Part shown: one piece after another, positions 1 through 37,395 of the stretch
Layout: each line of letters begins with the position of its first letter
Numbering within the stretch: position 1 is the stretch's first letter
From: Gammaproteobacteria bacterium
GTDB lineage: Bacteria; Pseudomonadota; Gammaproteobacteria; GCA-001735895
Direction of reading: 5' to 3'
Length of the DNA: 38,834 nucleotides
Assembly: GCA_050298595.1 (NCBI GenBank)
Contig: JBNKUM010000049.1
Coordinates: 1 to 38,834, forward strand
Position numbers and translations under genes: made by a program
The notes under the pieces: model-generated
What the model saw: only the letters and a program-made list of their open reading frames with translations
Database searches by the model: none
What the model was told of the DNA's origin: nothing

Positions 1-34
1 CGCCGGATTGGGGGATTTGGGGGCTTCCCTTCGG

Positions 35-132
35 GCGAGACGGGAAACAGCCATCTGCTGCGTTGTCATCCTTGAAAAGGGCATGCCATTCCCTGCGGAT
101 GACGCCTTGCATATGACTATTTCCCGTCTCGC
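35..132. repeat. Long imperfect palindrome (CAAGGCG...CAACGCAG-type core on the minus strand), module-free copy
   Basis: Arms GCGAGACGGGAAACAGCCAT (35-54) and ATGACTATTTCCCGTCTCGC (113-132) enclose the inner stem GTCATCC..GGATGAC. The minus strand reads CAAGGCG...CAACGCAG like the other cores in the window. Followed by a CTAG-ending terminus GGACAGTACACTAG (153-166). Confidence 0.75.
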
Positions 133-162
133 TATAATCTACATACAGTTTAGGACAGTACA

Positions 163-325
163 CTAGGCTCGAGAAGCGTGGTTTGGTTATTCCAAATGAG
201 CGACGAGCAAAGCTTCCGCTCCTGCTCACGCTCCTTACCTACGTCCATGTAGGCAAAGCTTCCGCTCCTGCTCACGCTCCTTACCTACGTCCATGTAGGC
301 AACAACGAGTGGCGGTTTTTAAACC
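163..325 (+). repeat. Truncated palindromic core repeat carrying two tandem 46-nt modules
   Basis: TAGGCTCGAGAAGCGTGGTTTGGTTATTCCAAATGAGCGACGAG is followed by exact tandem GCAAAGCTTCCGCTCCTGCTCACGCTCCTTACCTACGTCCATGTAG at 207-252 and 253-298, then GCAA. The left arm is missing, cut at CTAG. Confidence 0.85.
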
Positions 326-382
326 TCAACCCGAAGCATCCAAAGGGCATAAAGGCTGGGACCATTTTCCCTCCAGCGGCGT

Positions 383-712
383 TTGACGCCGGCGCAACAA
401 TCACTGGCGGAATTTCTTGAGATCGATATCGATCTGCTGGCAGGTTTGGGGATGGACGAGAAGGCAACCCCACTCGAAGCACCTGATGACAGGGAAACTG
501 ATGTCTGGCTGGACAAATTGCCGAAGACCGAGGTCAGGGGGTACCTTCGACAGATGCTGAATGGGCAAGGTGCGAAGCGAACGCCGAGCGAGAGTCGAAT
601 CGACGATATGCCGCCTGACAACTGCAGTTTGTGCCGGCGCAGGGACTACGTCGCTCGGTCGAGGAATTGTGGCAATTGGCCGAACAGGCCAAACAGCAAC
701 GACTGGCCAAGG
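383..712 (+). pseudogene. Fragment of a conserved hypothetical protein gene
   Basis: No RBS or ATG. Protein-like LTPAQQSLAEFLEIDIDLLAG...WLDKLPKTEVRGYLRQML continues in a shifted frame as LRRSVEELWQLAEQAKQQRLAK and ends at the nested module cluster at 708. Confidence 0.5.
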
Positions 713-814
713 ATGTAGGTGTTAGGGCAAAGCACGACTCCAGGGAGGGGGAGGTACGAGCTCAAGGATGAGCGAAGGTAGGACAATGCAGGAGCTATTG
801 TCGAGGGCGAAGCA
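708..814 (+). repeat. Triple-nested GGA-hairpin modules (A-like > B > C)
   Basis: A-like fragment 708-734; module B 5' part 735-756 and 3' part 805-814 (matches the reverse complement of 37261-37308); 48-nt module C at 757-804 inserted inside B. Confidence 0.8.
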
Positions 815-4584: not shown

Positions 4585-4658
4585 TTCATTCGTCATTGCA
4601 AGGCCTGAAAAAACGCAGTTAGTACGGGCTCAAGGATTAGATGTCGTGAAGGTATAAC

Positions 4659-4961
4659 CCTGGATTCCGCAGTTGGACGAGTTGTAGTGCGTTTGAGGTG
4701 CTGTAGACCAAGGTGTGACGACGCACAATAGCGAGCTTTTCCAGGGAGTTACAAAGCTATCGCGTCCTGCTCACGCCCCTTACCTATGTCCCTATAGGCA
4801 AAGCTTCCGCGTCCTGCTCACGCCCCTTACCTATGTCCCTATAGGCAAAGCTTCCGCATCCTGCTCACGCCCCTTACCTATGTCCCTATAGGCAACACAG
4901 AGATACGTTTAGGAAACAGAAAGATACTCTCTAATACGAGCGCTCAACTGCGGATTCCAGA
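4659..4961 (+). mobile_element. MITE with IS1380-like ends carrying three tandem 47-nt modules
   Basis: Ends CCTGGATTCCGCAGTTG / CAACTGCGGATTCCAGA. Units start at 4752, 4799 and 4846, followed by CAA at 4893. No matching TSD. Confidence 0.85.
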
Positions 4962-5056
4962 TTCAAGCAGACTTTACCGCGTGATATGTGAACCGATGCA
5001 GAGTTTATTTCTAGAAATCTCATAGTATTAATATTGTTCAAGTCTGAGATATTGCC

Positions 5057-23743: not shown

Positions 23744-24570
23744 CTATGAACCTTCCCTGGAAACATAGAATATAAGGTTTAAACCTAGATTCCGCAGTTG
23801 ACCGCTCGCAATAGAGGTTACCCCACTGCTTCATAAACCATTACAGTTGATGTGTATAATCACCCAATCGGTGCATCCCGCTACGAACTGAATTACACGT
23901 TTGAGGCGGCGTATCTCTTCGTTGTAACTCCTTGGAATAGCTGGCTATTCCGCGTCGTTACGCCTTGATCTACACCACCTCAAACGCACACTTCAACTCG
24001 TCCAACTGCGGATTCTAGGTTAAAGGGTCATCTTCATCTGCATGAAAAAAACCCTGACTGTCCCAGGGCACCAATCGGGGAATATCTCCAACAGCGGTAT
24101 CACGAATTTCGGTATCATCAAATTGAAATTGAAAACGACACATTGTTGAACGGCACTCATTGCCAACCACGCTAACACCTGAATATTGTTTATTGCTGAT
24201 ATTGTTCATAATCTCGTTTTGTGCCCAGTTGCTCTAATTCGACATCTTGATTAGTATCAGCAGCAGTAGTTTCCTGTTAACTCTCCTGGCTCTCATGTTC
24301 TAGCTCAGTGTTTTCGGCTTGATTTTGCTGCGTAGCCTGTTGTAAGTCATTCAGCTGTTTTTGAAGACTTTTTAAATCTTGCTGCAAATAGGAAACTTCA
24401 TCCCGATACAGCTCCAGGTCTGAGTTATTAGTTGTGGTTTCTTTGGGTGTTGGTATGAAGGCCTGTGACTTTGTTGGAACAGAGTCGATATTATTTGTTG
24501 CAATCCACAAAATAGCCAGTCCACATATAAAGCCAATAATCGTAGCTGTAAATGTATGTGTAGTTTTCAT
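23744..24570 (-). pseudogene. Membrane-anchored protein gene (ECRSTMCR motif) broken by a stop, a frameshift and a MITE insertion
   Basis: ORF pieces 24277-24570 (TM plus coiled coil) and 24015-24209. Removing 23784-24019 plus one TTAAA restores in-frame ...HADEDDPLNLIFYVSREGS-stop at 23744. Confidence 0.75.
23784..24019 (-). mobile_element. Complete 236-bp MITE, IS1380/ISEcp1-like ends, 5-bp TSD, module-free core
   Basis: CCTAGATTCCGCAGTTG ... CAACTGCGGATTCTAGG (17 bp, 1 mismatch) flanked by TTAAA at 23779-23783 and 24020-24024. Confidence 0.9.
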
Positions 24571-25050: not shown

Positions 25051-25203
25051 TCTCACTTCCTGTTGTGTATTAAATGAACTCCATACTTGATCAAGAGACC
25101 AGAGATTTCAATTAATTGTGGTCGGGCTTTCACCGCCAATCTTTTGCCGATTTATCTCGGCGCAGTGGATGTCAATAATTATTCCCTCTTCACTCTGCAG
25201 ATG

Positions 25204-25393
25204 AACCCCGCTACGAGCTGAATTGCACGTTTGCGCAGGCGACCTCTGCGTTGCCTATAAGGACATAGGTAAGGGGCGTGAGCAAGACGCGGAAGTCTTG
25301 TAATTCCCTGGAATAGCCTGCTATTCCGCGTCGTCACACCTTGATCTACACCACCACAAACGCACTTCAGCTCGTCCGACTGCGGATTCCAGG
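25204..25393 (-). mobile_element. One-ended MITE copy with a single 47-nt module
   Basis: Colinear with about 23873-24019. Module between TTG 25251-25253 and TTG 25298-25300. End CGACTGCGGATTCCAGG. Confidence 0.82.
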
Positions 25394-37152: not shown

Positions 37153-37395
37153 CCTGGATTCCGAAGTTGGACGAGTTGTAGTGCGTTTGAGGTAGTGTAG
37201 GTCAAGGCTACGACGCGGAATAGCGAGCTATTCCAAGGAGTTACAAGTCCTGTCGCGTCCTCGGCTCGGGCATCCTGCTTCGCCCTACCTCCTCCCTCCC
37301 TGGAGTCGTGCTCACGCCCCTTACCTATGTCCTTATAGGCAAGGCTTCCGCGTCCTGCTCACGCCCCTTACCTATGTCCTTATAGGCATCACAGA
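37153..37395 (+). mobile_element. One-ended MITE copy with two modules, the first interrupted by module B
   Basis: Starts CCTGGATTCCGAAGTTG. Unit 1 at 37244-37339 contains the 48-nt insert 37261-37308; unit 2 at 37340-37386. Confidence 0.85.

Follow-up and report, generated by a model that had tools for sequence, protein, structure and literature searches.

A 46–47-nt hairpin unit in tandem arrays within composite MITEs of a marine gammaproteobacterium, comparable in architecture to the inner module of BOX elements

Tandem arrays of a 46–47-nt unit lie inside several kinds of dispersed repeats in the genome of a marine gammaproteobacterium, in a pattern far above chance. The explanation favored here, with a probability of about 0.6, is that the unit is a repeat-prone inner module of composite MITEs, that its arrays grow in place, and that it has on rare occasions entered new hairpin loops. 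Judged by architecture, the role of the unit appears to match that of boxB in the BOX elements of streptococci.

The stretch of DNA analyzed, hereafter the window, is contig C49 (38,834 nt) of a short-read draft genome of 5.49 Mb in 119 contigs. This source genome is designated G000; other G-numbers denote comparison genomes, and L-numbers denote loci in comparison genomes or replicons. A sarcosine-oxidase protein encoded in the window is 99% identical to that of one metagenome-assembled genome and 91% identical to that of Neptunomonas. Copy numbers in G000 are best taken as lower bounds because draft contigs break inside these repeats (the window contig itself starts within one), and long arrays are possibly collapsed or missing. 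The region is also found in public contigs from one study (four runs), but these end at the repeat, at 4688 and 4869; the joints listed from the public runs derive from other copies and give no signal on copy-number variation or excision. The relevant features of the window are listed below, where hosts are the carrier repeats that contain the modules.

1–166, plus strand: right part of host D.
163–383, plus strand: host B (ends approximate), which has a long stem of its own on both sides of the module site.
208–299, plus strand: two identical tandem 46-nt variant units in host B (TRF, direct reading).
700–747, minus strand: fragment of a related 48-nt module, module-2.
4659–4960, plus strand: host A copy 1, MITE-like, with terminal inverted repeats at 4659–4675 and 4945–4960; the right inner arm is replaced or truncated.
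4714–4746, plus strand: optional 33-nt hairpin sub-module at tcaAGG^AGTTA, with a 2-nt (GG) junction ambiguity.
4752–4798, 4799–4845 and 4846–4892, plus strand: three tandem 47-nt units, preceded by GAGTTA and followed by CAAC (CAA = 4893–4895; direct reading, TRF).
23784–24019, minus strand: host A copy 2, no unit; 5-bp target duplication TTAAA at 23779–23783 and 24020–24024.
23922–23924, within 23915–23930, minus strand: CAA (TTG on the plus strand) of the empty host A site with 0 units, reading GAGTTACAACGAAGAG.
25198–25393, minus strand: host A copy 3, truncated at one end and holding a single unit.
25254–25300, minus strand: the single 47-nt unit in host A copy 3 (direct reading).
37153–37389, plus strand: host A copy 4, left arm only, with an array of another module type, a partial unit and a full unit.
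37247–37308, plus strand: the different but related module type of about 62 nt, after GTTACAA(G) at 37240–37247; it recurs at C36:1725.
37309–37339 (last 31 nt of the unit) and 37340–37386 (full unit), plus strand: array of host A copy 4, about 1.7 units; the next triplet is CAT.

TRF reports 4752–4895 as a repeat of period 47 with 3.1 copies (96% matches, score 267), and 207–302 as one of period 46 with 2.1 copies (100% matches, score 192). The preliminary description had listed sites with zero to three copies of the module, and its counts of three at 4752–4892, one at 25254–25300 and two at 208–299 were reproduced, whereas 37244–37386, which it had read as two copies, consists of one full unit, a 31-nt partial unit and about 62 nt of the other module. 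Its empty site at 23915–23930 on the minus strand was confirmed by direct reading, and, as it had noted, CAA flanks the unit on both sides (CAT after 37386). Variable insertion positions had been anticipated there as an objection to a site-specific unit; the position is fixed within host A, being AGTTA^CAA at all window copies of the 47-nt unit.

In the whole genome, an nhmmer search with an HMM of the unit (E<=0.01) recovered 89 units, of which 79 are nearly complete; they form 60 arrays of one (37 arrays), two (18), three (4) or four units (1). An array of 6 units is present in a relative (G001:C4). G000 has 72 tandem repeats with a period of 25–120, and no period is as frequent among them as 47 (17 repeats; period 46, 2 repeats). 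By neighborhood, the arrays divide into 30 with both host A arms, 15 with one such arm, 6 in host B, one in an A/B hybrid and 8 in other surroundings.

The unit is pyrimidine-rich on the strand as written, and its 3′ end is a 6-bp hairpin. This hairpin is conserved with compensatory changes. Pairing holds in 94.3% of cells over 44 distinct copies drawn from many genomes, and one of the pairs reads UA in 21, CG in 16 and UG in 3 copies; the hairpin of the 46-nt variant at 208–299, CCTACG/TGTAGG, is compensatory with respect to CCTATG/TATAGG. The preliminary description was right that the unit is without terminal inverted repeats: one end is not the inverted copy of the other, as it would be in a MITE, and the unit has the one 3′ hairpin instead. 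Units show no replication-strand bias (24:26), and their orientation is mostly dictated by the carrier.

Host A, the most frequent carrier, is a true MITE and moves as a whole: its ends are inverted, it is flanked by a 5-bp target duplication, it is gene-free and numerous, and the orthologous site of one copy is empty in two relatives. The inverted ends take the form CCTGGAWTCCGCAGTTG, and 71 such end motifs are present in G000. Where the window has TTAAA-[236 nt]-TTAAA, G001 and G012 read GGTTTAAAGGG, host A copy 2 being wholly absent there. For most of the carrier insertions of G001, G012 and G010, G000 has either no equivalent or a nearby one in opposite orientation, and the carrier family has thus been mobile since these species split. 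Since carrier insertions are not shared, no orthologous arrays with comparable copy numbers were found between species. Host A copy 1 folds into a long hairpin with the array near its tip (z -2.2), and its MFE structure pairs the two ends. The 33-nt sub-module is present in 21 and absent in 9 of the 30 arrays with both host A arms, and all four combinations of sub-module and unit, with or without either, occur with exact edges. In G001, the 627-nt contig C407 links the sequence left of C24:149477 with that right of 37387 in the window; as a possible assembly chimera, it was left out of the analysis.

The first bases of the window belong to host D. In the relative G004 and in a diverged G000 copy (C114:4817), the unit directly precedes host D sequence, so that the window contig starts where a unit would lie. 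Window 1–166 matches dozens of places in G011 at 97–100% identity, many of them at contig ends, and is probably the end of an insertion sequence or of another high-copy repeat. An AbiEii-type nucleotidyltransferase toxin gene is found at 1460–2440 with an overlapping upstream ORF at 891–1526, and 891–2440 is probably an AbiE-type toxin-antitoxin pair amid the repeats. G011 and G000 also have in common a stretch of 3101 bases that is 100% identical (G011:C102, L161, and G000 C36:198–3298) while the genomes elsewhere differ by 15–30% in DNA; this could be due to recent transfer or to assembly cross-contamination.

Precisely empty host A sites number four in G000, compared with 30 two-armed filled copies. 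They are C8:150936, which has the mark CGCAGAG, the type of the filled copies, the window copy, marked CGAAGAG, and two minimal copies without the sub-module. The CGAAGAG sub-family is hugely amplified in G011, with dozens of copies of about 246 nt at 94–99% identity. All 19 listed G011 sites read GTTA[C/T]AACGAAGAGAT and carry the CGAAGAG mark, and the single listed G010 site reads CGCAGAT. G011 has just 3 unit matches, one of which (L109, at a contig edge) has a right arm of the CGAAGAG sub-family. Filled and empty forms of host A are both successful sub-families, and the empty copy in the window, belonging to the separate CGAAGAG sub-family, is therefore not simply the “before” state of its filled neighbors. 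The host A copies are old, since nearest neighbors among the 15 copies alignable in register differ at 7–12 of 93 arm positions (at least 7 in each case), and no recent change of state is seen.

Other carriers likewise exist with and without modules. Host C has an empty version, located inside another repeat. At C21:35200–36250 and, in reverse, C21:39600–40650 are two copies of a unit of about 1.1 kb bounded by inverted repeats, in both of which a RAYT-like Y1 gene is interrupted by a 144-nt MITE, host F, with the ends AATGGCACTTACTTAAG. One copy alone has the 48-nt module-2 in the small hairpin loop of host F, which makes three levels of nesting, and the host F parts of the pair differ, as compared by eye, at 1 base. 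Among 12 paired host F copies, 11 are without module-2 and one has it; BLAST found 4 further filled copies, and because filled copies exist elsewhere, the difference between the C21 copies could be gene conversion rather than a fresh insertion. The junctions of the modules are ambiguous by 2–3 nt (CAA, GG, TC).

How the arrays grow can be read from the differences between their units. The mean number of differences is 1.96 within arrays and 3.23 between arrays, and 0 of 5000 shuffles gave a value as low. Eleven non-consensus variants are common to the units of one array, for example the compensatory pair 36C/43G in C84. Arrays of other modules are found in the same carriers: module-2, which is 48–50 nt long and homologous to the unit, forms arrays of three at C8:18380 and C100:65497, and an unrelated 50-nt module forms a two-copy array at C94:146527. 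The likeness within arrays, together with the arrays of other modules, indicates that arrays grow mainly in place. The preliminary description had offered two options, repeated integration that regenerates its target and insertion followed by slippage; the private variants shared within arrays speak against the former, and the latter fits better. Growth in place by slippage or unequal exchange has been proposed for boxB arrays (PMC3049150). Position 4 (A/G), which varies between neighboring units in 9 of the 18 arrays analyzed (AG five times, GA twice, AGG and AAG), is not predicted by simple duplication unless the 5′ part of the unit mutates fast. Another module of the carrier family, 52 nt long and similar to the 50-nt module of C94:146527, forms a tandem array of three in G001:C55 (L129, about 1700–1860).

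The unit is not confined to one carrier. With sharp edges, it is found in at least seven contexts in G000, namely hosts A, B, C and D and three single contexts. At C40:45543–45589, a hybrid copy has the left arm of host A, one 47-nt unit and the right arm of host B, with the switch exactly at the 3′ edge of the unit; this looks more like a site-specific than a homologous exchange. The unit is also associated with a C-terminal remnant of an ISCR/IS91-family transposase in G000 (C17:36737–36782), in G019 (L102) and in G026 (L110, 1326–1625). The remnant matches positions 443–507 of NCBIfam NF052416 (ISCR family), with 16 extra residues. The codon after which the unit stands, just past an RVF motif, is the same in these three genera; with 45 nt in G019 and 48 nt in G026 the reading frame is kept, whereas the 46 nt of G000 break it. 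The profile PF04986 (IS91/Y2) gave no matches in G000, and the control was also unmatched, which leaves this search uninformative.

Beyond the source genome, the unit is present in 15 of the 41 genomes of a set of relatives (G000 included). Among 401 sampled Gammaproteobacteria genomes it was found in 21, representing 20 genera and about 18 families, at 82–96% identity and amid unrelated flanks. Tandem copies occur in G164, G188 and G088 of this sample, and array edges in other genomes vary by several bases. Some complete genomes hold very few units, with one match in G042, and large replicons of Pseudoalteromonas, Saccharobesus and Catenovulum also carry the unit, again with unrelated flanks. 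No match was found in a phage collection. On a Saccharobesus plasmid (L166, 1300–1610), two units are located about 170 nt downstream of a group II intron, which has an annotated ltrA and a visible domain-V-like sequence. From the sharp edges in at least seven contexts and the presence in 21 of 401 genomes, it follows that the unit has somehow entered new carriers. Passive hitch-hiking does not explain its 85–96% identity across families amid unrelated flanks.

One alternative is that the unit is a tiny non-autonomous element inserted by an enzyme acting in trans, most plausibly a single-strand transposase of the HUH/Y1 type, 3′ of (N)CAA in hairpin loops, and that the arrays are the sum of successive insertions. 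Each insertion would recreate the target, given the GGCAA at the end of the unit. CAA on both sides, sharp edges, precisely empty sites in hosts A, C and F, at least seven types of flank in G000 with many more across the class, the carrier switch at the unit edge of C40:45543 and the unit within the ISCR-type remnant of G019, G026 and G000 are all consistent with such an element. Candidate enzymes are also at hand, with 26 Y1_Tnp matches in G000. In a hand count of the class sample, 19 of the 21 genomes with the unit have Y1 genes, compared with 231 of 379 others (a tally that includes the unpublished G165 and G331, both Y1-positive and module-negative), but this enrichment is weak, genome size and kinship being confounding factors. 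No Y1 gene is found within 4.9 kb of any array in G000 or, in a comparison of coordinates, within about 48 kb of the listed unit copies in G362 and G042. The repeats flanking Y1 genes differ from the unit, RAYT-like genes being flanked or interrupted by host F; adjacency to RAYT genes was rejected, with no Y1 gene flanked by the unit in G000, G362 or G042. Co-occurrence with recombinase genes had been suggested as a check in the preliminary description; no recombinase was linked to the unit by these comparisons, and an IS110 gene lies 1.4 kb from one unit copy. Circle integration at CAA, another of its suggestions, is hard to reconcile with these distances, and a duplex circle of 47 bp is physically implausible given the stiffness of DNA, so that conservative circle integration is unlikely; a single-strand route is possible. 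The private variants common to the units of an array, the one hairpin where IS200/IS605 ends have two, the even distribution over the replication strands and the edges that vary by several bases in other genomes also count against repeated insertion by such an enzyme, which is considered rather unlikely. Of the earlier picture of a small site-specific mobile unit, there remains a unit that evolves apart from its carriers, has sharp edges and belongs to a site of which both filled and precisely empty forms exist; the growth of arrays through repeated integration is not supported. A wider form of this idea, in which the 46–50-nt hairpin units found across the class would be mobile entities and the smallest known bacterial transposable units, written into hairpin loops by a single-strand enzyme, while MITEs and IS remnants would provide landing sites and transport, is speculative and on balance not probable.

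The unit may instead be retained for a function, such as protein binding or a structured DNA or RNA signal, with arrays tuning the dose and with spread by selection rather than mobility. Its 85–96% identity over about 18 families despite differing flanks, the compensatory changes that maintain the hairpin and the very small copy number in some complete genomes, such as the one match of G042, would agree with a function, and unit copies are frequently near gene ends. However, units have no orientation bias relative to neighboring genes (25:21), a covariance search against Rfam gave 0 matches at the gathering score for the whole window and 0 at E<=1 for 4600–5000, and the distribution is patchy (21 of 401 genomes). 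Many copies are truncated or decayed, and one setting of the unit is a broken transposase gene. A functional origin of the pattern is therefore regarded as very unlikely. Equally, the filled state could be ancestral, if a core of about 100 nt, made of the sub-module and the unit, was present in the first carrier and the empty sites are precise deletions, aided by hairpins, between 2–3-nt repeats, nothing ever having been inserted. The order “xAGGCG - small hairpin - linker - unit - CRACGC” recurs, by eye, in hosts A, B and D and in other genera, the empty copies in G000 are few (4 against 30), and those of the window and G011 form a sub-family of their own, all as expected from ancestral filling. 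It is difficult to accommodate the unit in clearly unrelated settings, that is, the protein-coding remnant and unique intergenic DNA in other families. Moreover, empty copies prevail among the paired host F copies (11 of 12), the filled one on C21 has its empty counterpart there, and sub-module and unit combine in all four ways with exact edges. Deletion from an ancestral core is accordingly judged highly doubtful.

According to the favored explanation, that of an inner module of composite MITEs, the entry of the unit into each kind of carrier would have been a rare event at a hairpin loop that left a junction repeat of 2–3 nt (CAA). Entry may have occurred by microhomology-guided copying from another copy, through template switching at a stalled hairpin, or by the action of an enzyme on single strands. 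The number of units would then change in place by replication slippage or by unequal exchange between units, and presence, absence and number would spread with the transposing carrier and, by recombination, among carrier copies. Insertion sequences that bear the unit, such as the ISCR-type remnant, could ferry it between genera. The direction of the change at entry, insertion as opposed to deletion, is taken from parsimony alone.

Among known systems, BOX elements are the closest to this arrangement. The preliminary description knew of no named element class that fits, yet BOX elements share the architecture: according to PMC3049150, those of S. pneumoniae and S. suis have end modules that pair and 0–n tandem copies of boxB, about 45 nt long, in numbers varying between loci. 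The same paper describes one boxB of S. suis that is combined with two different pairs of end modules, an inner module that folds separately from the ends, insertion of elements into each other, and some elements in frame in genes. Likewise, the ends pair here (4659–4675 with 4945–4960), and the unit is present at a fixed place in 0–4 copies in G000 and 6 in G001. Nesting, occasional in-frame copies and one inner module in different carriers are further likenesses. Unlike BOX, the repeats described here belong to another phylum and have nested optional layers (sub-module, unit, module-2 and the 50-nt module), at least seven contexts of the unit in one genome, a range of about 18 families of the class, and a carrier with a 5-bp duplication. 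On these likenesses, the unit and its carriers appear to be a new family of the BOX kind. Since the comparison is by architecture and not by sequence, they are filed as something that would work like BOX and not as members of the BOX family. A literature search by unit sequence and by repeat, with subscription journals and supplements outside its scope, returned no paper naming the repeat.

ERIC/IRU and YPAL (RU-1, RU-2) are likewise hairpin-forming, MITE-like intergenic repeats that have also been found within genes; in ERIC, both the ends and the duplication are TA (PMC2759123). Homology to ERIC, a lead prompted by the ERIC2 primer, was rejected as unsupported. The carrier with its array had no blastn match in 20,395 E. 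coli records, and an HMM of 12 ERIC copies from E. coli K-12 found nothing in G000 at E<=10. Among eight local alignments, six had scores reached by at least 60 of 500 shuffles, one by 17 of 500 and one by 0 of 500, and similarity to the 127-bp consensus was not seen. A 14-nt run of YPAL/RU-2 of Yersinia (PMC2759123, Table 1b) is in common, by eye, with the reverse complement of the unit hairpin in Pseudoalteromonas (L164, 1513–1560).

REP sequences and REPIN-RAYT systems resemble the unit as short hairpin repeats outside genes that sometimes form ordered tandem clusters (PMC3116915), and G000 is rich in Y1 genes. The units, however, are arranged head to tail and not as inverted doublets, and they do not adjoin Y1 genes in G000, G362 or G042; membership in REPIN-RAYT was rejected for both reasons. 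Mini elements of the IS200/IS605 type (PATE) have hairpins near both ends, insert 3′ of a fixed short target without duplication, and favor one of the replication strands. With its CAA target and CAA end, the unit would be compatible with such an element; it has one hairpin, and its replication strands are balanced at 24:26, though its orientation is mostly dictated by the carrier. Rickettsia palindromic elements are small repeats found in frame inside protein-coding genes. They are named in PMC10969869. The unit differs from them, as it is in frame in one remnant gene family only and most of its copies are intergenic and in arrays. Cyanobacterial small dispersed repeats (SDR), the subject of Elhai et al. 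(2008; cited in PMC3116915), are reportedly very small and found inside other repeats, in which they would resemble the unit.

These observations would add marine Gammaproteobacteria to the streptococci as bearers of an architecture of the BOX type. They add to what is known from BOX an inner unit that is kept at 85–96% identity across many families while its carriers differ, and that is precisely present or absent at the hairpin tips of several unrelated carriers. In practical terms, the arrays are markers for strain typing, they break assemblies, and they probably lead to the mis-annotation of small ORFs in these genomes. They also raise a testable question, whether inner modules are copied into new hairpins by a dedicated activity or by replication accidents alone.
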